64,000 nt of DNA, taken from assembly GCA_937138415.1 (NCBI GenBank), contig CAKZPA010000033.1:124511-188510 (forward strand), in the 5' to 3' direction. Positions 1 through 9,166 of this stretch are shown here, piece after piece. This DNA is from an uncultured Nitrospiraceae bacterium (GTDB lineage: Bacteria; Nitrospirota; Thermodesulfovibrionia; Thermodesulfovibrionales; SM23-35). The notes beneath the pieces were generated by a model that worked only from the letters and a program-made list of their open reading frames with translations, ran no database searches and was not told the DNA's origin. The translations under genes and the position numbers were made by a program. Every line of letters starts with the position of its first letter. Positions within the stretch are counted from its first letter, which is position 1.

Positions 1-1764
1 GACGCCTTCTTTGACCTTCGTCAGACCGCTCATCCGCAGGGTTTTCATGCCGAAACGTATCGCGGTTCTTTTGAGTTCGTCTGCTGACGCTCCTTCGAGT
101 ATCATCTCTTTCAGGTCTGCGCCGACCGGCATAATCTCGTACAGGGCGATTCTTCCCTTGTATCCCGAATTATTGCATGACGGACAACCTCGTCCCTTGT
201 AACAGACGACGGATTGCGCTTCCTTCTCGGGGAATCCGAGCTGAACGAGGGTGGGCACCGGTACCTTTTCCTCCTCCTTGCACGAAGGACAAATCTTCCG
301 CGCGAGCCTCTGCGCAGCGATAAGAATGAGCGAGGCGGAGACGAGAAAAGGCTCGATCCCCATGTTGAGGAGCCTGCTTATGCTACTCGGAGCGTCATTG
401 GTATGGAGGGTGCTCAACACGAGGTGTCCCGTCAGCGCCGCTTTCACCGCAATCTCTGCCGTCTCGAAGTCCCGTATCTCGCCGACAAGAATGATATCCG
501 GACTCTGTCGAAGAAAGGCACGCAAGGCAGATGCGAAGGTGAAACCTATCTCCTCGTTCACCTGCACCTGATTCATCCCCTGGAAGTTGTACTCGACAGG
601 ATCTTCAGCCGTCATGATGTTGATGCCGGGTTTGTTGAGATAGTTGAGTGCGGAGTAAAGCGTCGTGGTCTTTCCGCTGCCCGTTGGACCGGTCACGAGG
701 ATCATCCCGTACGGTTTGTTCAGGGCGTCCATGAATTTCTTCAGGGCATCTTCCTCGAAACCGAGCTTCGTGAGGTCGGCCTGCAGATTCGATTTGTCCA
801 GAATCCGGAGGACAGTTTTTTCCCCGAAAAGACAGGGTAGAACCGAAACGCGGAAATCGATTTCTCTCTTCCTCCCAAGTCTCAATTTGATACGCCCATC
901 CTGCGGCAGCCTTCGCTCCGCGATATCGAGTTTCGACATGATCTTTAACCGTGACGTGATCGGATTCTTGATTTTGAGCGGGAGATTCATCGCATTGAAG
1001 AGCACGCCGTCAACGCGGTATCGTACCCTCAATGACTTCTCGTACGGCTCTATATGAATGTCACTCGCACCGCCTTTGATTGCATTGATCAAAATGCCGT
1101 TCACGAGCTTGACGATCGGCTCATCGACCTCGCCAGAGACCGCGTCATCCTGTTCGGAGTACGTCTCGATGCTGTCGAGTGCGTCACCGACAATTTTATC
1201 GAATTCGTCCACGTCGACCGTGATGGATTCATCGAAGTGTCCCTCGTCGGCCTCCTTCAGATCCTCGTCGCTAAGGGTGAAATCCTGTGATTGCAGCAGG
1301 TTATTCGTGCTCTTCTTTGGCGGGACGAGCGCAGCGCCGCCGTTTCGGTAGTGCGTCGCGATCGCCTGGAGAATCGAACTCTCCCCCGAGACCACGACCT
1401 CAACGTTATACCCCGTCATGAATTTCACGTCGTCTATCACGAACACGTTCGACGGATCCGCCATCGCTATCGTCAGCGTCGCCCCTACCCGCGCAACCGG
1501 TATGATGAAATACTTCTGCGCCACCTCCACAGGAACTAACTTCAACACCGATGGATCTATCCGGTAATCAGCAAGATTGATCGCCGGGACCCCCCACTGC
1601 TTGCTCAAAAACCCCACCAGCTTCTCCTCGCTAATGTACCCCAACTTCACCAAATTCGCCCCGAGCCTCCCCCCCTCCTTCCGCTGAAGACTCACCGCCT
1701 CCTTCAGCTGATCCTCCGTGATCAGTTGCGCCCCTATCAGTAACTGCCCTAACTTTACCGACAT
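1..1764 (-). CDS. Type IV pilus / T2SS-family secretion ATPase (PilB/MshE/GspE-like), paralog 1; 3' end runs off the window
   Basis: Absent from the ORF track, presumably because its stop lies left of position 1. My reverse-complement spot checks are in frame with ATG at 1764-1762. 661-720 reads NKPYGMILVTGPTGSGKTTT (Walker A). 1-60 reads IRFGMKTLRMSGLTKVKEGV, parallel to the C-terminus of the neighbouring 602-aa paralog. 1261-1338 reads GAALVPPKKSTNNLLQSQDFTLSDED. GAGG lies 6 nt upstream of the ATG. No competing minus-strand ORF is listed here. Confidence 0.85.
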   Translation of the reverse strand, partial: MSVKLGQLLIGAQLITEDQLKEAVSLQRKEGGRLGANLVKLGYISEEKLVGFLSKQWGVPAINLADYRIDPSVLKLVPVEVAQKYFIIPVARVGATLTIAMADPSNVFVIDDVKFMTGYNVEVVVSGESSILQAIATHYRNGGAALVPPKKSTNNLLQSQDFTLSDEDLKEADEGHFDESITVDVDEFDKIVGDALDSIETYSEQDDAVSGEVDEPIVKLVNGILINAIKGGASDIHIEPYEKSLRVRYRVDGVLFNAMNLPLKIKNPITSRLKIMSKLDIAERRLPQDGRIKLRLGRKREIDFRVSVLPCLFGEKTVLRILDKSNLQADLTKLGFEEDALKKFMDALNKPYGMILVTGPTGSGKTTTLYSALNYLNKPGINIMTAEDPVEYNFQGMNQVQVNEEIGFTFASALRAFLRQSPDIILVGEIRDFETAEIAVKAALTGHLVLSTLHTNDAPSSISRLLNMGIEPFLVSASLILIAAQRLARKICPSCKEEEKVPVPTLVQLGFPEKEAQSVVCYKGRGCPSCNNSGYKGRIALYEIMPVGADLKEMILEGASADELKRTAIRFGMKTLRMSGLTKVKEGV

Positions 1765-1766
1765 GC
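1335..1766. repeat. 432-bp perfect direct repeat, copy 1 (5' end of ATPase paralog 1)
   Basis: Base-by-base comparison with 3219-3650 (offset 1884) shows no mismatch. Identity breaks at 1334/1332 on one side and at 1767 on the other. Independently visible in the track as identical C-terminal tails of the antisense ORFs 1291..1539 and 2095..3423. Confidence 0.95.
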
Positions 1767-1839
1767 CAGCCTCTTCGCCCAGCACCAATCGAAAAAAATG
1801 GACCGCCGGCACCTGGTCTCCCCGCTCTCTGAAATACCT

Positions 1840-3648
1840 CTAATCACTGAATGTCACCCTCAAGACCTCGTCGAGAGACGTGATCCCTTTCTTTATCTTC
1901 GCGAGTCCGCTCATCCGGAGCGTTTTCATGCCCAATCTGATCGCGGTCTTCTTCAGTTCGTCCGCGGACGCCCCTTCGAGAATCATCTCCCTTAGTTCGT
2001 CGTAGAGGGGCATGACTTCGTAGAGTGCCAGTCGCCCCTTATAGCCGGAATTATTGCAATCAGGGCACCCTTTGCCACGATAGCACGTGACCGATTGTGC
2101 CTCCTCCGGCGAAAACCCGATCTCTACAAGCCCGTTGACCGATACAGTGTCCTTGACTTTGCAGGAGGGACAGAGCACCCTCACAAGCCTCTGCGTAGCG
2201 ATGAGAATCAAGGACGCCGCAACGAGAAATGGCTCGATGCCCATGTTCAGCAATCTGCTGACAGTGCTCGGAGCGTCATTGGTGTGGAGCGTGCTCAGCA
2301 CAAGATGACCAGTCAAAGCGGCTTTCACCGCGATCTCCGCGGTCTCGAAATCCCTGATCTCTCCCACCATGATGATGTCGGGGTCCTGCCTCAGGAACGC
2401 CCGCAACGCCGCTGCGAACGTCAGCCCGATATCCTCTCTCACGTGCACCTGATTAACCCCATGGAAGTTATACTCGACCGGATCCTCAGCCGTGGAGATA
2501 TTGACACCGATCTTATTGAGGTAGTTCAGCGCGGAGTACAATGTCGTCGTCTTGCCACTCCCCGTTGGACCGGTTACGAGGATCATGCCGTACGGCTTGT
2601 TGATGGCATCCATAAACTGGCGCAACGCATCGTCCTCGAAGCCGAGCTTGGTGAGATCGACCTGGAGATTGGCTTTGTCGAGCAGTCTGAGCACCGTTCT
2701 CTCTCCAAAGAGACACGGAACGGTCGATACCCGGAAATCTATTTCTCTTTTCTTGCCGAGCTTCAGCTTTATCCTTCCGTCTTGCGGAAGACGGCGCTCA
2801 GCGATATCGAGATTCGCCATGATCTTCAGGCGCGAGGTGACGGCATTCTTTATCTTCACCGGCAGATTCATCACTGTATACATGACTCCGTCCACCCGTT
2901 GCCGCACCCGCAGAGAATTCTCGTAGGGCTCGATATGGATATCGCTCGCTCTCTCCTTAATCGCATTGATGAGGATGCCATTGACGAGCTTTACGATGGG
3001 CCGCTCGACTTCCTGAACGACATTGTCTTCTTTCTCTTCTACAATCTCGATATCGCTCAGTGCCTCACCGATGACCTTATCGAATTCGTCGACGTCGATC
3101 ATCGTCCCTTCGTCGTTCGTCGCGAATGCCCCTTCGCCACCGGGCTCATCCTCGGAGAATGTATAATCCTTTGCCGAAAGGATCTCAGCAGTCGCTTTCT
3201 TGCTCGGGACGAGCGTACCGCCGCCGTTTCGGTAGTGCGTCGCGATCGCCTGGAGAATCGAACTCTCCCCCGAGACCACGACCTCAACGTTATACCCCGT
3301 CATGAATTTCACGTCGTCTATCACGAACACGTTCGACGGATCCGCCATCGCTATCGTCAGCGTCGCCCCTACCCGCGCAACCGGTATGATGAAATACTTC
3401 TGCGCCACCTCCACAGGAACTAACTTCAACACCGATGGATCTATCCGGTAATCAGCAAGATTGATCGCCGGGACCCCCCACTGCTTGCTCAAAAACCCCA
3501 CCAGCTTCTCCTCGCTAATGTACCCCAACTTCACCAAATTCGCCCCGAGCCTCCCCCCCTCCTTCCGCTGAAGACTCACCGCCTCCTTCAGCTGATCCTC
3601 CGTGATCAGTTGCGCCCCTATCAGTAACTGCCCTAACTTTACCGACAT
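1840..3648 (-). CDS. Type IV pilus / T2SS-family secretion ATPase (PilB/MshE/GspE-like), paralog 2, 602 aa
   Basis: Walker A GPTGSGKTTT, Walker B/Asp box DPDIIMVGEIRD and His box GHLVLSTLHTN are present. There is a tetracysteine CPSC...CPDC. The N-terminal T2SSE_N/MshEN-like domain begins MSVKLGQLLIGAQLITEDQL. Confidence 0.93.
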   Translation of the reverse strand: MSVKLGQLLIGAQLITEDQLKEAVSLQRKEGGRLGANLVKLGYISEEKLVGFLSKQWGVPAINLADYRIDPSVLKLVPVEVAQKYFIIPVARVGATLTIAMADPSNVFVIDDVKFMTGYNVEVVVSGESSILQAIATHYRNGGGTLVPSKKATAEILSAKDYTFSEDEPGGEGAFATNDEGTMIDVDEFDKVIGEALSDIEIVEEKEDNVVQEVERPIVKLVNGILINAIKERASDIHIEPYENSLRVRQRVDGVMYTVMNLPVKIKNAVTSRLKIMANLDIAERRLPQDGRIKLKLGKKREIDFRVSTVPCLFGERTVLRLLDKANLQVDLTKLGFEDDALRQFMDAINKPYGMILVTGPTGSGKTTTLYSALNYLNKIGVNISTAEDPVEYNFHGVNQVHVREDIGLTFAAALRAFLRQDPDIIMVGEIRDFETAEIAVKAALTGHLVLSTLHTNDAPSTVSRLLNMGIEPFLVAASLILIATQRLVRVLCPSCKVKDTVSVNGLVEIGFSPEEAQSVTCYRGKGCPDCNNSGYKGRLALYEVMPLYDELREMILEGASADELKKTAIRLGMKTLRMSGLAKIKKGITSLDEVLRVTFSD

Positions 3649-3650
3649 GC
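3219..3650. repeat. 432-bp perfect direct repeat, copy 2 (5' end of ATPase paralog 2)
   Basis: See 1335-1766. Covers codons 1-143 plus 2 nt upstream of the ATG. Confidence 0.95.
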
Positions 3651-3654
3651 TCTA

Positions 3655-3683
3655 AAAATATATAAATTATTCATAAAAGTCAA
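3655..3683 (-). promoter_or_regulatory. Sigma-70-like promoter TTGACT-N17-TATTTT, followed by 6 nt and then the ATG of ATPase paralog 2
   Basis: The minus strand reads TTGACT TTTATGAATAATTTATA TATTTT TAGAGC ATG. It sits in a strikingly AT-rich stretch (about 3650-3740). No SD-like purine run precedes the ATG. Confidence 0.4.
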
Positions 3684-3993
3684 CAAAATACATTTTTTTA
3701 CTTTAACCATTACTTTACATCTTGTGAGCACAGACTACCCTCTTCCGCATGGCTAATCAATGCTAAAGGAGAACGAGAAACCATAACCGTGATAGTCATC
3801 ACAACACAAACGGAAACTTTTCATACGATGAAGTTTACTAGCAAGGCATATGCCTGCAACACAGTCCGTATTCACAGGCCACACGCGCCGATACGAGTCA
3901 AAAACACGGTCACGTTGTCGTTGGCAGGTGCCGGGCTTTTGTCCTGACCATTCCAAGATGCGTCACCCTTTCTCGGCAACGCGTCATCGAGGC

Positions 3994-4023
3994 AAAAGAA
4001 AAAAGAGCTTATCGAAGATCAGC
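3994..4023 (-). terminator. Candidate intrinsic terminator downstream of the oxidoreductase operon
   Basis: The minus strand reads GCUGAUCUUCGAUAAGC (6 bp plus one mismatch, 3-nt loop) followed by UCUUUUUUCUUUUG. The stem is weak and AU-rich, about 170 nt after the stop at 4193. Confidence 0.3.
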
Positions 4024-4192
4024 CGGAGAAGTGTTTTTCAGCGGCACGGCGTGGCGAGCACAATTGTTTTTCGACTCGGCAGGATACCTCGGCCCGAGGC
4101 ACCACGCATACGATCGTCTCGCTACCGCTGAACGGCACCGTGAAAACATCATCAACCTCAATAATTTCCCGAGAGAGCTTACAAACGCGGGA

Positions 4193-5047
4193 TCAATAGA
4201 ATTCAAGAATGGTTTTTTCTACGCGCGCGGTCGCGATCGGTTGGAGAACGAGCGGCACATCCTTAATGGTGGGAATCCGCTCCTCGAGCAGAGGTCGGTC
4301 ATTCCTGTAGAGAATACCGGTAGGGATCCGGTCTCCCCACTCCAATGCCCTCTGGAATGCAGAACTCTTCTCTTCAGGATTATAGTCGGGCTCGATACGA
4401 TAGACGCGTTGACGATACCACTCGTAGGTGTTAACCTTATTGAACGTCACGCAAGGCTGAAGGATGTCCAAAAGGGCGAATCCCTTGTGGCGGATGGCCG
4501 CCTTCATGAGGTCCTTGAGAAAAGCGATATCACCGGCAAAGCCCCTCGCCACGAAACTGCAGTCGAGCGCAACCGCGAGGGCGATGGGATTCAGCGGCTC
4601 TGAAAAAACGCCGAATGGCTGATTCTTCGTGATCATTCCCTCCCCGCTCGTGGGCGACGGCTGGCCTTTCGTAAGCCCGTAGATCTGGTTATCGTGCACA
4701 AAGAGTTTCAGATTGACGTTTCTCCTCATCGCATGGACGAGGTGATTCCCCCCCTCCCCATAACAGTCCCCATCACCCGCCACGGCGATCACGAGCATCT
4801 CGTGATTAACGAGTCTGATCCCCGTTGCCACGGGGAGGGTTCTTCCGTGCAGCCCGTTGAACGTATTGCACAGCACATAGTGCGGGAATTTCCCGGCTTG
4901 TCCGATCCCTGAGACGATGGTGAACTGGTGCGGTTCGATGGCCAGTTCTGCCATCGCCTGCTGAAAGGCTTTCAGAATTGCAAAATTACCGCACCCGGGA
5001 CACCACGCTGGGGTCTTCCCTCTATAATAGTCGTCCAAGGCAGGCAC
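4193..5047 (-). CDS. 2-oxoacid:ferredoxin oxidoreductase, beta (TPP-binding) subunit
   Basis: N-terminal WCPGCGNFAIL motif and TPP motif GDGDCYGEGGNH. GTG start overlaps the alpha gene by 26 nt. Substrate (2-oxoglutarate versus other) cannot be assigned from sequence alone. Confidence 0.9.
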   Translation of the reverse strand: MPALDDYYRGKTPAWCPGCGNFAILKAFQQAMAELAIEPHQFTIVSGIGQAGKFPHYVLCNTFNGLHGRTLPVATGIRLVNHEMLVIAVAGDGDCYGEGGNHLVHAMRRNVNLKLFVHDNQIYGLTKGQPSPTSGEGMITKNQPFGVFSEPLNPIALAVALDCSFVARGFAGDIAFLKDLMKAAIRHKGFALLDILQPCVTFNKVNTYEWYRQRVYRIEPDYNPEEKSSAFQRALEWGDRIPTGILYRNDRPLLEERIPTIKDVPLVLQPIATARVEKTILEFY

Positions 5048-6791
5048 TCACTTTTTCCAAAAGTTCTTCGACCGTAAACGGCCGCCCATCGTATTTGTGA
5101 ATCGCGTGATCGAATGCATACCCCGTCTCTGCCCTGAAAAACCTTTCGAATTGCCCCGTTGCGTTCTGCTCGACGCAAAGCGAGGCCTTCGCCTCTTTCA
5201 GCCGGCTGAGGAAATCGGTTTCAGGCCTTACCCCTGTTGGCACGGGTATATCACCTGCGGATGCGACACTCCCAACGGGTAAGGGAAAAAGTTCACTGAA
5301 ATGGAGCATTCCGATCTTTCGGACATTCGCAAGCGCATCGACGACTTCCTTGACGATTCCGTAGAGAGAGCCCCAACATACGAGGAGAGTGTCCGCACCT
5401 TCCTCCCCGTAAAACAGGGGCGGTGCGATCTCTCGCCGAATCTGCGGCAGTTTTCTCAGTAACCTCTTTTGAACCATGCTTACGCGGGTTTCGGCGTCCT
5501 CGATAATGTGGCCCTCCTCATCATGTTCGTCGCTGTCGGTTACGACGAGATTTTTCGACTGACCGGGTACACCAAGCGGAGAAATACCATTATCGGTGAA
5601 TGCGTGACGCTTGTAAGCGGTAACCTGCCTCCACTCCTCTCCCCGGATCCGATAGTCGCGATAGCGAATTCTCTTCACGTCGAAACCATCGAATGTCCAT
5701 GCCGAATCAGCGAGATACTGATCAAAAACGACGAATGTCGGTATCTGATACTTTTCCGCGAGATCGAAGGCTTTATTGGTGAGGAACAGTGCCTGTTCCG
5801 GCGTTCCGGGCGCGAAGACGACCCTTGGGAACTCCCCATGGGCAGCATGGATTGCGAAGAGCAAATCGCCTTGCTCCGTGCGCGTCGGAAGACCCGTGGC
5901 CGGTGCCGGCCTCTGGCCGAGCGCGATGACGATCGGCGTCTCGGTCATGCCCGCCAGCGAGAGGCCTTCCACCATGAGGGCGAATCCGCCACCGGCTGTT
6001 CCGGTCATCGCTCTCACGCCCGCGAACGAGGCACCAATGGCCATGTTGATGGCAGCTATCTCGTCCTCTGCCTGTTCGACAATCAAGCCGTATTCTTTCG
6101 CCTTGCCGGCAAGGTAATTCATGATACCCGTCGAGGGTGTCATAGGATAGGCTGCATAGAAACGGCATCCGGAGGCGAGCGCACCGAGCGCGATTCCCTC
6201 GACGCCGTTGATCAGAAGCTTCGGTCTGCCAAACTGTGATGGGATGAACGCGCACTTCGGGCAGTTTCGGACAGCGTAGTCGTGGCCTGCCCGCGCAGCA
6301 CGCCGATTCGCCTCAACGATCTCGTCGCCCTTCTTGCGAAAAGTATCATCGATAATTTTTTCAAAAATATCGAGCTCGACCCGGAGCATTCCAAGGACGG
6401 CCCCGGTCGCAACGGTATTGGCCAAGATTTTGCTCCCCTGCCGGAGTGCGATTTCCGTGAACGGGACATCGAGAAAAGAATCGCCTTCGAGCACGAGCTT
6501 TAGATCGGCCGCGTCATAAATGAGAACTCCGTTATCGGAAAGCTCGTCCCGATGACGGGTGATGCTTTCGCGATCGAGCGCAACGATGATGTCAACGCGC
6601 CGGCGCGATGCGGAGATACCCTTCTCCGAAAATCTGACTTGGTAGAAATTGTGGCCGCCGCGGATGCGGGACTCGTAATCCTGGTGCGTGAAGACGTGGT
6701 ATCCTGACCGCGAGAATACCTTCGCGAGCGTATCACCGATGGTCTGAATGCCTTGTCCGGCCTCACCGCCTATCTTTATAGAGTAGTCCAC
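5022..6791 (-). CDS. 2-oxoacid:ferredoxin oxidoreductase, fused gamma-alpha subunit (two-subunit KorAB-type enzyme)
   Basis: 589 aa. The N-terminus IKIGGEAGQGIQTIG is gamma-domain-like and is followed by an alpha domain (YAAYPMTPST, GTAGGGFALM). GTG start lies 7 nt after the upstream stop. Confidence 0.9.
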   Translation of the reverse strand: MDYSIKIGGEAGQGIQTIGDTLAKVFSRSGYHVFTHQDYESRIRGGHNFYQVRFSEKGISASRRRVDIIVALDRESITRHRDELSDNGVLIYDAADLKLVLEGDSFLDVPFTEIALRQGSKILANTVATGAVLGMLRVELDIFEKIIDDTFRKKGDEIVEANRRAARAGHDYAVRNCPKCAFIPSQFGRPKLLINGVEGIALGALASGCRFYAAYPMTPSTGIMNYLAGKAKEYGLIVEQAEDEIAAINMAIGASFAGVRAMTGTAGGGFALMVEGLSLAGMTETPIVIALGQRPAPATGLPTRTEQGDLLFAIHAAHGEFPRVVFAPGTPEQALFLTNKAFDLAEKYQIPTFVVFDQYLADSAWTFDGFDVKRIRYRDYRIRGEEWRQVTAYKRHAFTDNGISPLGVPGQSKNLVVTDSDEHDEEGHIIEDAETRVSMVQKRLLRKLPQIRREIAPPLFYGEEGADTLLVCWGSLYGIVKEVVDALANVRKIGMLHFSELFPLPVGSVASAGDIPVPTGVRPETDFLSRLKEAKASLCVEQNATGQFERFFRAETGYAFDHAIHKYDGRPFTVEELLEKVSACLGRLL

Positions 6792-6798
6792 CGGCAGT

Positions 6799-7266
6799 CT
6801 ATAGAAAACTTTTCTTGAGATTGTTCAACCACACGATGTGACTCTTCTCTTCCCTGATAATCTCGTCGATCACGTTTTTTTCACGCAGCGTTTCGCGGAG
6901 CGTATAGTAATAAAGGAGCGTTTCGCGCTCGAAACAGAGAGCAAAATCGATAGCCTCTGCAGCGGTTTTCACGTGTTCGAGGGAAGGGAGACACTTGTCT
7001 TTGCCGAGAAAGAACTCCGAATCGACGATCGCACGGAGGTAGGGCGTCACTTCTCCCCAACCCTCCGGCGCGTCATCCGACAACCGTCCTTCAAGGTTCA
7101 TAAAGCTCGCCTCGTGCTTTGCCTCGTGCACGGCGAGCAACTCAAACAGTCTCCTCAACTCCGTCTGATCGCGAAATTTCTCCGCCATCCGGGCGTAGAA
7201 TTCCCTGCCCAATTTCTCCGTCTGCACCGCCTGTTCGACAACTTCTCTTACCGAAAAGGTTATCAT
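6799..7266 (-). CDS. Rubrerythrin/ferritin-like di-iron protein (no rubredoxin domain)
   Basis: Two ExxH-type motifs (VHEAKHE, REEKSH) sit in a four-helix-type sequence. The start is set at MITFSV because GGAGGAG precedes that ATG. The track ORF extends to 7305. Confidence 0.8.
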   Translation of the reverse strand: MITFSVREVVEQAVQTEKLGREFYARMAEKFRDQTELRRLFELLAVHEAKHEASFMNLEGRLSDDAPEGWGEVTPYLRAIVDSEFFLGKDKCLPSLEHVKTAAEAIDFALCFERETLLYYYTLRETLREKNVIDEIIREEKSHIVWLNNLKKSFL

Positions 7267-7313
7267 GCGTTCTCCTCCCGCCCTTCGACGAACCGATGTG
7301 GGCATTTAGAAGT

Positions 7314-7679
7314 TTAGACGATACGCCCTCTACCGTCAATCTCTATCACATGCCGCTCGAGAAGATAAGCGAGGAAAAGGAATCCTCCGCACGGGAGCGG
7401 GGATTTGCCGTCATTCGCTCCGGACGGATCCCGCCTGCGCGCGATAAAGTCGCACCCGTCTTCGTTGAATGCGCACACCGAGCATAGATTCCGGCTGAGT
7501 CTTTCCTGCATCGCTGCATCGGTCGGCAGACCGAACTGCTCGAATGGGAGGGATTTCCCTTCCCTCACGAGTCTCTCGACAACGAGGAATCCTTCGCACG
7601 CGATTTCCTCGTCCTTCCAAGGCTTGAAATAAGAACAGATGTTCCCGCAAAGGCAATCCCGTAGGAAAGGGTTCAGCAT
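7314..7679 (-). CDS. Cysteine-rich hypothetical protein (8 Cys, 122 aa from MLNPF)
   Basis: The ORF is open to 7736 (GTG). The ATG at 7679 lies 1 nt after the UAA of the upstream small ORF (UAA-C-AUG), a coupling-like junction. No family recognised. Confidence 0.55.
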   Translation of the reverse strand: MLNPFLRDCLCGNICSYFKPWKDEEIACEGFLVVERLVREGKSLPFEQFGLPTDAAMQERLSRNLCSVCAFNEDGCDFIARRRDPSGANDGKSPLPCGGFLFLAYLLERHVIEIDGRGRIV

Positions 7680-7680
7680 G

Positions 7681-7938
7681 TTATCGACCCGGGACCGGCA
7701 TCGGAAGCACTGTCGGCGTTCGAAAGTCTCCCACACGAAAACTATTCACTGCTGTCCGACCTATTTCTAACTGCCGCTCGATGCCGAAGAAACACCGTGA
7801 CGACACCGTGCACAGATAATCCACGCCTTCTGTCACGATGCATATAATAAGCGTCAATGGGAATCTGCCCGTCATCAAAACGAGGTTCGCCATGAAATCA
7901 TCCTGTCGTTTCATAATGTTCATGAAATATTCAGCCAT
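7681..7938 (-). CDS. Small ORF A (85 aa) with a conserved N-terminal 28 codons; coding status unproven
   Basis: AAGGAG lies 5 nt upstream of the AUG. The first 84 nt align without gaps to 10360-10277 (61/84 nt; MAEYFMNIMKRQDDFMANLVLMTGRF versus MAECSINIVSRRDESVAHLVSMAGRF). It is divergent from radical SAM gene 7985. Could instead be a cis-regulatory RNA. Confidence 0.3.
   Translation of the reverse strand: MAEYFMNIMKRQDDFMANLVLMTGRFPLTLIICIVTEGVDYLCTVSSRCFFGIERQLEIGRTAVNSFRVGDFRTPTVLPMPVPGR
7780..7810 (-). promoter_or_regulatory. 31-nt conserved motif, copy A (11-bp-phased direct repeats)
   Basis: Plus strand GATGCCGAAGAAACACCGTGACGACACCGTG. It matches copy C (16859-16889) at 28/31. It contains ACACCGTGACG followed by ACACCGTG at an 11-bp period. 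Confidence 0.45.
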
Positions 7939-7984
7939 AAAGACTCCTTTTTAGGCACCTATGCGAACTATTATAAAATAGAGC

Positions 7985-9166
7985 ATGCGATATTATCTGA
8001 GCCGTGCCGCCGTTCTAAAAATGCTCGAGCATCGGGCCGTGTACCACGTCGAAACGGACGACCTCTATGAACTCGACGAGGCCTCCTTCGCCTTCCTCAG
8101 GAATTGCGGTTCCGAGGAGGGTTGTGAAGACGGCGAGGAAAGATTCGTGGAATATTGTCTTCGCGAGGGTATCCTCTCGCGCACCCGCGTCCCTGCTAAA
8201 AGGCCACCCATCGTTCAGGCACCTATTCCGTCGCTCAGGTACCTGGAACTTCAGATAACGAACTCGTGCAACCTCCGCTGCAAGCATTGCTACCTGGATG
8301 ATCACGCGTATAGAATCGAAACGAAGAGCGCCAGGAATGAGCTTTCCGTGGACACCGTTGAACGGGTACTCCAGGAATTCGAGGAGATGCAAGGTCTCAG
8401 AGTTCTTATCAGCGGAGGGGAGCCCCTCCTGCACAGCCGGTTCGAAGACATCAACACACTCCTTCCCAACTTCGCCATCAGAACAGTATTGATGACAAAT
8501 GGCCTTTTGCTCACCGAGCGCCTCCTTTCGAGCTTGCGCGTCAATGAAATTCAGATCAGCATCGACGGTCTCGAAGCATCGCACGACGCCCTGAGGGGTT
8601 TAGGGTCGTTCAGAGTGGCGATGGATGCTGTAAAAAGATCTATCGCTGCGGGGTTCCACGTCTCGATCGCGACGATGGTCCACCGGAAAAACCTTCAGGA
8701 TTTTCCCGAGATGGAGAAACTATTCAGCGATCTAGGGGTTAGGGAATGGTTGGTCGACGTGCCGTGCGTAACCGGGAGACTGAGGGACAATCCCGATTTC
8801 CAGCTTTCCCCCGAGGAGGCAGGCGCTTACCTCAGATATGGGTACGGTGAAGGATTTCATGGCAGCACCCATGGCTACGCCTGCGGCACGCACCTTATGG
8901 CGATCACGGCCGACGGGAAGGCGGCGAAATGCAGCTTCTACGCAGACCGACCGGTCGGCTCTGTCACTGAGGGGATCGGAGAAAACTGGCGGAGAGTCGA
9001 ACGTCTTGAATTGAGCGAACTGCGTTGCGACTGCGCACACATCAACGAATGCCGCGGCGGCTGCCGGTATCGGGCCTTCCTTTTGGGGGACGAGCGCGGT
9101 AAAGACTCCTATCGCTGTAATTTCTACGGGCTCTCAGAACCCGTGAATGGCGAGACCGTCCGATGA
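7985..9166 (+). CDS. Radical SAM / SPASM-domain protein with an approximately 90-aa N-terminal extension
   Basis: CNLRCKHC (CxxxCxxC). C-terminal Cys-rich region ACGTH...KCSF...CDCAHINECRGGCRYR. The N-terminal segment before the core (HRAVYHVETDDLYELDEASFAFLRNCG) is reminiscent of PqqD-like RRE domains; that is inference. Confidence 0.9.
   Translation: MRYYLSRAAVLKMLEHRAVYHVETDDLYELDEASFAFLRNCGSEEGCEDGEERFVEYCLREGILSRTRVPAKRPPIVQAPIPSLRYLELQITNSCNLRCKHCYLDDHAYRIETKSARNELSVDTVERVLQEFEEMQGLRVLISGGEPLLHSRFEDINTLLPNFAIRTVLMTNGLLLTERLLSSLRVNEIQISIDGLEASHDALRGLGSFRVAMDAVKRSIAAGFHVSIATMVHRKNLQDFPEMEKLFSDLGVREWLVDVPCVTGRLRDNPDFQLSPEEAGAYLRYGYGEGFHGSTHGYACGTHLMAITADGKAAKCSFYADRPVGSVTEGIGENWRRVERLELSELRCDCAHINECRGGCRYRAFLLGDERGKDSYRCNFYGLSEPVNGETVR

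Follow-up and report, generated by a model that had tools for sequence, protein, structure and literature searches.

Two ancient tandem pilB paralogues of Nitrospirota very probably kept alike in one N-terminal domain by recurrent gene conversion

A 64,000-nucleotide (nt) stretch of DNA from an uncultured Nitrospiraceae bacterium of the Thermodesulfovibrionales (assembly GCA_937138415.1, contig CAKZPA010000033.1, positions 124,511 to 188,510 of the forward strand) begins with two tandem genes for type IV pilus motors, here called pilB-A and pilB-B. We refer to the whole stretch as the window, to its genome as W, and to its pilB-A, which serves as the reference for codon positions, as W_A. The two genes share a perfectly identical 5' block that covers exactly one protein domain and are clearly diverged over the rest of their length. 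Comparison with the orthologous locus in related genomes leads us to propose that this identity is very probably the product of recurrent gene conversion between ancient paralogues, a process that would be both confined to the one domain and long-lived.

RESULTS

Comparison of the window with itself gave a perfect 432-nt match between positions 1335-1766 and 3219-3650, which at this offset of 1884 is the only long identical run. No third copy of the block occurs within the 64-kb window, and no similar DNA was found among plasmids. Both copies are read on the minus strand. That of pilB-A (3219..3650) comprises 2 nt 5' of the ATG and codons 1-143, which is exactly the N1/MshEN domain, and that of pilB-B (1335..1766) has the same limits, identity running from 2 nt before each ATG to nt 430 of the open reading frame (ORF), in codon 143. 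The homogenised share, one domain, amounts to about 24% of the gene. Directly 3' of the block, the alignment of the two genes shifts to an offset of 1881, equivalent to a one-codon indel, and the bodies that follow have an overall nt identity of 0.718 (50 to 87% per 60-nt window) and an amino acid (aa) identity of 80%; outside the block, the longest identical run in W is 17-21 nt. Given a background identity of 72%, a perfect run of 432 nt would arise by chance with a probability of about 2e-62. A first-pass annotation, made from the window alone, had described this block and its edge near the ATG, the older paralogues outside it, the unrelated upstream regions, and a sharp mosaic restricted to the N-terminal sensor domain, and all four descriptions proved accurate. 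A protein search with the 143-aa tract alone gave mainly short partial N-terminal fragments, and pilB-B was not listed among the matches.

The orthologous locus was retrieved through exact-protein look-ups from ten further Nitrospirota genomes, which stem from several studies and include SPAdes-, MEGAHIT-, and "contig_N"-style assemblies. All 11 genomes carry tandem pilB-A and pilB-B genes followed by pilT and pilC. In a protein tree of the bodies (W_A residues 206-590), the eleven A copies form one clade and the eleven B copies another, and the single-copy pilB genes of other Nitrospirota (L006 and L007) fall outside both. The pair therefore goes back to a single duplication that is older than all these lineages.

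The tract has a different history. Within each of nine genomes (W, L002, L003/L004, L005, L167, L168, L169, L173, and L174; the converted set), the A and B tracts show 0 to 4 differences in 430 to 500 nt (99 to 100% identity), whereas tracts from different genomes are only 72 to 89% identical at the nt level, and in tract trees, A groups with the B of its own genome in 9 of the 11 genomes. The differences between genomes lie mostly at synonymous sites, and it is also the synonymous sites that are homogenised within genomes. Since each lineage has a tract sequence of its own, conversion appears to have taken place anew after each split. Within genomes, the summed divergence of the tract is about 0.2%, compared with 11% for the closest pair of genomes, so that the last homogenisation would have been very recent relative to speciation. 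With paralogues of one genome closer to each other than to their orthologues in the tract and bodies grouping by paralogue, the sequences display the pattern of concerted evolution. Thus, the recent gene conversion proposed in the first-pass annotation is supported as a process but not as a single event, and the comparison of related loci suggested there returned nine genomes, W included, that each have an identical tract, the same 5' edge zone, and a 3' edge in the linker between domains.

The same annotation had reasoned that uniformly diverged paralogues in related genomes would speak against conversion. Such divergence is present in 2 of the 11 genomes, L170/L171 and L172, in which N-terminal windows are 62 to 87% and 63 to 88% identical, respectively; the other nine are converted. 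The B bodies of both remain within the B clade. In the N-domain tree, L172_A and L172_B pair together, which suggests a later escape in that lineage, and L170_A and L170_B are fully separate. Both are lineages that have escaped from conversion and provide no evidence against it. The bodies of L174 (pilB-A at 4001-5812 and pilB-B at 5877-7688) have an nt identity of 0.81, with identical runs of 68 and 44 nt and an identity of 1.00 in the last 60-nt window, suggesting additional conversion patches in the 3' half. No identity tract was found in distant tandem PilB pairs of other phyla (L008, L041, and L072). Scans of genome and metagenome contigs with pilB-A matched generic PilB motifs, and the matches listed were mostly distant single-copy pilB genes with at most 72% identity instead of close relatives, and the pilB genes derived from these scans served only as the codon-composition baseline used below.

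A repeat of this kind might be suspected to result from assembly, a possibility that the first-pass annotation wished to see excluded and that two further contigs, breaking or cycling exactly at the repeat edges, speak against. The JGI contig L001 (2011 nt) corresponds to window positions 3650..1640 with zero mismatches. It starts and ends with the same 127 nt, and 2011 is the sum of the 1884 period and a k of 127; L001 is the cycle expected as output when a de Bruijn graph assembler meets such a repeat. The ENA contig L166 (88 kb) starts exactly at window position 1766, the edge of the pilB-B tract, and matches the window at 1766 of 1766 nt. The window thus joins the promoter to the tract, L001 joins the A body via the spacer to the tract, and L166 joins the tract to the B body and pilT, and only a tandem arrangement accommodates all three junctions. 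Moreover, because the assemblies branch exactly at the tract edges, both copies must be identical in the reads. The repeat is real and not an artefact of assembly. Many database proteins related to the tract (P0121-P0240) are MshEN-only fragments of 130 to 250 aa, some of them on long contigs, consistent with assemblies or gene calls breaking at the repeat in many samples. One entry, P0242, is a 420-aa version of pilB-A that lacks the N terminus and is otherwise identical (residues 183-602; window 1840-3102, minus strand). Its source is an NCBI contig 204,933 nt long, 718 nt shorter than the contig that has the full gene (205,651 nt).

The upstream member of the pair, pilB-A (1840..3648, minus strand), is complete and encodes 602 aa. 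The diverged paralogue pilB-B (1..1764, minus strand) runs past the start of the window, leaving 588 of its 601 codons visible; the full 601-aa protein, P0035, is encoded on L166, where pilT (364 aa), pilC (407 aa), pilS, and pilR follow, a gene order that the relatives have as well. Both proteins match Pfam MshEN (PF05157) at residues 57-143 and the T2SSE core (PF00437; E = 1e-141 for pilB-A and 3e-139 for pilB-B), and both contain GPTGSGKT, DII(M/L)VGEIRD, and TGHLVLSTLHTN. The Walker A motif, Walker B region, His box, and tetra-cysteine motif are intact in both paralogues, the last reading CPSC...CPDC at residues 493-531 of pilB-A and CPSC...CPSC at residues 492-530 of pilB-B. The nearest proteins are annotated as PilB of Nitrospirota/Thermodesulfovibrionales, and the pilB-A body, which clusters with the A-type orthologues, is the nearer of the two to single-copy pilB genes. 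At 23 positions, mostly within residues 233-320 and 380-430, A differs from B in a manner conserved across the 11 genomes. By these sequence features, both genes are PilB-type type IVa pilus extension ATPases of the GspE/PulE superfamily, with a predicted activity in extension.

All 143 residues of the block can be aligned with the N-domains of the PilB, PilF, and MshE structures 3JC8, 5ZFR, 5TSG, 6F8L, and 5HTL, the homology extending over residues 1-146 with E-values of 1e-20 to 1e-45 (5HTL, 2e-20; 6F8L, 3e-40; 5ZFR, 5e-45; 3JC8, 2e-45). The MshEN motif that binds cyclic di-GMP (c-di-GMP) is a tandem 24-residue motif with a 5-residue spacer (PMC5013675). In the shared block, motif 1 (K4-Q27) agrees at 8 of 11 strict positions, departing from them by K for R, Q for G, and V for L, and at 10 of 11 under the relaxed pattern of that study. 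A 5-residue spacer (R28-G32) separates it from motif 2 (R33-Q56), which agrees at 10 of 11 strict positions; Y43, the second of the L/V/I pair, fits the relaxed hydrophobic class only. The shared N1/MshEN domain is probably a c-di-GMP sensor, with predicted ligand binding.

Both edges of the tract lie where the paralogues cease to resemble each other. The 5' edge is found 0 to 5 nt before the ATG in every converted genome, and the DNA upstream of A is unrelated to that upstream of B. In W, pilB-B is preceded by a 75-nt intergenic spacer (1765..1839, minus strand) with GAAGAGG 8 nt before its ATG, whereas the DNA abutting the pilB-A ATG is AT rich, lacks a Shine-Dalgarno sequence, and resembles a promoter. 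No terminator or stable hairpin was found in the W spacer (minimum free energy, -16.2 kcal/mol, weaker than that of shuffled sequences), so that pilB-A and pilB-B are likely cotranscribed. The putative pilB-A promoter is sigma-70-like (TTGACT-N17-TATTTT; 3655..3683, minus strand) and ends 6 nt before the ATG. The layout TTGAC(T/A)-N17-TATnnT-N6-ATG precedes pilB-A in eight of nine genomes inspected (W, L002, L003, L005, L168, L169, L170, and L172), L167 being without it. Judging from the position of this promoter, the pilB-A mRNA is probably leaderless, starting at or beside the A of the ATG, and the 5' edge of the tract would then coincide with the likely transcript start. At the other end, the block is followed by a hypervariable inter-domain linker (codons 144 to ~206 of pilB-A; 3030..3218, minus strand; counterpart in pilB-B at about 1149-1334), which has the lowest A/B identity in the gene (0.43 to 0.63 per 60 nt), carries the one-codon indel, and would form the 3' barrier. 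The 3' edge differs by genome, between W_A codons ~144 and 168, but always lies inside the linker after N1. Ends that vary within so narrow a zone fit independent events that halt where homology fails.

The tract is also distinguished by its base composition. At four-fold degenerate sites on the coding strand, the W tract has a G fraction of 0.75 and a C fraction of 0.10, compared with ~0.38 and ~0.36 in the bodies (chi-square, p = 1e-5 to 3e-7). Among 393 windows of 143 codons drawn from 49 crude gene calls in the 64 kb (mean G, 0.37; standard deviation [sd], 0.08), it is the most extreme for four-fold G, the next unrelated maximum being 0.59. Every converted genome has more four-fold G in the tract than in the body, the difference ranging from +0.06 to +0.37 and reaching +0.20 or more in six of the nine; the same contrast in 144 other pilB genes has a mean of -0.015, an sd of 0.069, and a maximum of 0.157. 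When the converted genomes are pooled, four-fold G is 0.46 to 0.54 in all quarters of the tract and drops to 0.26 to 0.30 immediately 3' of it, while four-fold C is 0.08 to 0.19 in the tract versus 0.24 to 0.31. The N-domains of nonconverted pairs and single-copy outgroups are, if anything, G poor at these sites. Summed four-fold GC exceeds that of the body in all nine converted tracts (+0.03 to +0.14) and is lower in the nonconverted pairs. Changes at four-fold sites on the W lineage comprise 11 to G and 2 to C in the tract versus 44 and 49 in the bodies (Fisher, p = 0.016); in the other close lineages, counts are small and reveal no continuing drive toward G, so part of the excess may be historical in origin.

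Several simple sources of this composition were considered and rejected. Plain GC-biased gene conversion should be symmetrical with respect to the strands, whereas G is up while C is down. An E. coli-type Chi signal, GCTGGTGG, is found in each tract and at first seemed enriched, with 7 matches versus 0.9 expected, yet on one strand 787 other octamers match or exceed its frequency, and GCTGGTGG is not conserved in the relatives. Acquisition of the N-domain by horizontal transfer, bringing foreign codon usage, finds no support, since tract trees agree with the clade; the N-domain of L174 groups with native single-copy types and still has both the identical tract and the G excess. No canonical G-quadruplex with loops of 12 nt or less was found in the W tract.

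Some further observations concern the surroundings of the genes. The spacer is exactly 75 nt long in the five closest genomes (W, L002, L003, L005, and L167), with a largely different sequence, and 13 to 62 nt long in more distant ones. W, L002, L003, and L005 share a conserved element, AAGTAATGGTTAAAGT, located ~50 nt 5' of the pilB-A ATG (window ~3700-3716, minus strand); in L167 it is displaced to a position beside the ATG. It could be a site for a regulator. Upstream of pilB-A (window 3651-9166), W, L002, L003, and L167 have genes for 2-oxoacid:ferredoxin oxidoreductase, rubrerythrin, and radical-SAM proteins, and L005, L169, L172, L173, and L174 have rpsM-rpsK-rpsD-rpoA-rplQ together with Toprim/UPF0102 genes. 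L168 has only the Toprim/UPF0102 pair in common with these, with a greA/greB-like gene before it. This rearrangement of upstream synteny stops at the pilB-A promoter. Inside each tract, ~130 to 165 nt into the ORF, a terminator-like hairpin is followed by GGGTTTTTGA (window 3499-3520 and 1615-1636, minus strand), probably a chance match in coding sequence. Antisense to pilB-A runs an ORF of 442 aa (window 2095-3423, plus strand), which most likely owes its existence to codon bias in the sense gene.

DISCUSSION

We propose that non-reciprocal homologous recombination between the two direct repeats keeps the first 430 to 500 nt of the paralogues identical. In Salmonella, experiments with the tuf genes have shown that conversion starts anywhere in the homology and runs until homology ends (PMC5485169). 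Applied to pilB, hundreds of bases of perfect homology would let recombination start inside the tract, but the bodies, with identical runs of at most 21 nt in W, would offer little for initiation, and on these grounds we regard the tract as a self-sustaining island of identity. Conversion would stop on the 5' side at unrelated DNA, the promoter at the A start codon as opposed to the spacer before B, and on the 3' side at the indel-bearing linker and the diverged bodies behind it. The bodies, consisting of the N2 domain and the ATPase core and each conserved in its own way, would yield two motors with one sensor domain, and selection that keeps the motors distinct is probably a further obstacle to the tract's spreading. 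The sequences themselves show the repeat and its reality, a single old duplication, and homogenisation genome by genome, synonymous sites included; we infer this mechanism, the role of homology limits in setting the boundaries, and any benefit of a shared sensor.

Seen from the window alone, a single recent conversion event peculiar to W would suffice, as a perfect 432-nt tract beside bodies of 72% identity is what one event would leave. Eight further genomes with identical tracts of their own, which have differing 3' ends and are 11 to 28% apart at the nt level, make this very unlikely. Extremely improbable is an origin in assembly or binning, whether through collapse or chimerism of a repeat or through the tandem joining of one gene's variants from two strains. 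Although the contig is apparently metagenome derived, short-read assemblies do break at the repeat, and the truncated P0242 is found on another contig, the junctions in L001, L166, and the window allow only a tandem path, the tract is in frame and domain exact, and the architecture recurs in 10 other genomes from several assembler styles. Nor do we find it credible that conversion is absent and that extreme purifying selection acts on the N-terminal nucleotides, for example, on an embedded RNA or regulatory element. In most lineages, change at four-fold sites is indeed somewhat slower in the tract than it is in the bodies (on the W lineage, 15/40 in the tract versus 69/96 and 55/93 in the bodies), and the odd G-rich codon usage hints at sequence constraint. 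However, the tracts diverge between genomes by the same 11 to 28%, mostly at synonymous sites, while remaining identical within each genome, and selection alone is unable to make two copies change in step. In addition, window positions 1-5000 contain no match to an Rfam family, c-di-GMP riboswitches included.

Two other explanations accept recombination and give it a purpose. Identity itself might be selected, with conversion as the means, if both motors have to respond alike to c-di-GMP, dock to a common partner, or form mixed hexamers; this would include the purging of variants that break identity, and the tract composition may have evolved to favor recombination. Coincidence of the tract with a complete structural domain, the stability of its boundary over nine lineages in which the bodies keep their paralogue-specific conserved residues, and a G excess that ends where the tract ends all favor such selection. 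On the other hand, the N-domains have diverged in L170 and L172 although both genes are retained, which means that identity is dispensable, and a self-sustaining identity island needs no selection. We therefore treat selected identity as possible but doubtful. Alternatively, the 432-nt repeats could serve as a programmed switch, an 1884-bp deletion or amplification changing the motor under the pilB-A promoter. Direct repeats of such length recombine readily, L001 resembles an 1884-bp circle or amplified unit, and a pilB-A version without its N terminus is on record. But a contig of one period plus k (127) is standard de Bruijn graph output for any such repeat, a deletion allele was not seen, with both genes kept in 11 of 11 genomes, and there is no recombinase gene at the locus. 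It is plausible that the repeats recombine and so delete or amplify the 1884-bp unit, as the first-pass annotation foresaw, but that this is programmed is highly improbable.

Certain points weigh against recurrent conversion as the full account. Conversion is deduced here from assembled sequences, several of the relatives come from one study (ERZ250394xx-ERZ250396xx), and polishing of long-read assemblies could homogenise near-identical paralogues. P0242 may represent an alternative arrangement without the 5' tract of pilB-A, or else an alternative assembly. Limits of homology do not by themselves account for the failure of the 3' edge to advance into the bodies over so long a period, and some selection against homogenisation of the bodies must be assumed. 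Finally, simple gene conversion would not lead one to expect a G excess of the coding strand that is limited to the tract.

Candidate causes of this G excess are asymmetry between the strands in heteroduplex repair, the promotion of R-loops or gaps, and through them of recombination, by a non-template strand rich in G, and a constraint on the mRNA. It is conceivable, if unlikely, that the excess is tied to homogenisation as such, either through strand-asymmetric biased conversion or repair or through a recombination-promoting composition that is selected to keep the motors on one sensor. A candidate form of the latter is a non-template or lagging-template strand that is rich in G and prone to R-loops or gaps. 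Were such a tie to exist, nature would have provided in this locus a replicated test of conversion bias, with many single-copy genes as controls alongside the converted and the escaped lineages.

The process as such is known, and the tandem motor ATPase paralogues are a fresh example of it. Like pilB, the tufA and tufB genes of Salmonella and E. coli are two paralogues kept near identical by recurrent homologous conversion (Paulsson et al. 2017, PMC5485169), but they are dispersed and homogenised over the whole gene, whereas the pilB genes are in tandem and homogenised in one domain only. A survey of 26 genes with long-lasting concerted evolution in prokaryotes likewise found paralogues, including tandem pairs (fla and mtrA), that group by species over deep divergences, which was attributed to recurrent conversion (PMC6053082). 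The pilB case differs in its limitation to one domain and in the escape of two lineages, and the text of PMC6053082 makes no mention of pilB or of pilus or secretion ATPases. The N-domain with its tandem motif is homologous to that of the described MshEN (GSPII) receptors MshE, PilB, and PilF (PMC5013675; PDB 5HTL, 3JC8, 5TSG, and 6F8L), and no described system is known to have two motors that share one identical copy of this domain. In the literature searched, we found nothing on conversion between PilB paralogues. For partial homogenisation, the closest analogue may be babA and babB of Helicobacter pylori, of which Pride and Blaser reportedly described in 2002 that one segment of the paralogues is homogenised within a strain and another, which defines function, is diverged. 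These genes are said to be dispersed and to encode outer membrane adhesins, conversion giving antigenic or adhesive variation within the host; the pilB genes encode cytoplasmic motor ATPases, and their pattern is stable across species.

Clean homogenisation of a single domain over a long time, with the rest of the gene diverging and specialising, is rare. The locus comes with built-in controls, namely, nine converted lineages, two that escaped, and single-copy outgroups, and it lends itself to measurements of the rate of conversion, the limits of its tracts, and its bias in an uncultured phylum. The G excess of the tract bears on whether recombination biases bacterial base composition and could make conversion bias in bacteria directly testable. 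In practical terms, the repeat accounts for the breaks at pilB in short-read assemblies of these organisms, and the pilB N terminus is unsuited to paralogue assignment or phylogeny. For the biology of these bacteria, our analysis predicts two distinct pilus extension motors that would read one signal through an identical sensor domain.

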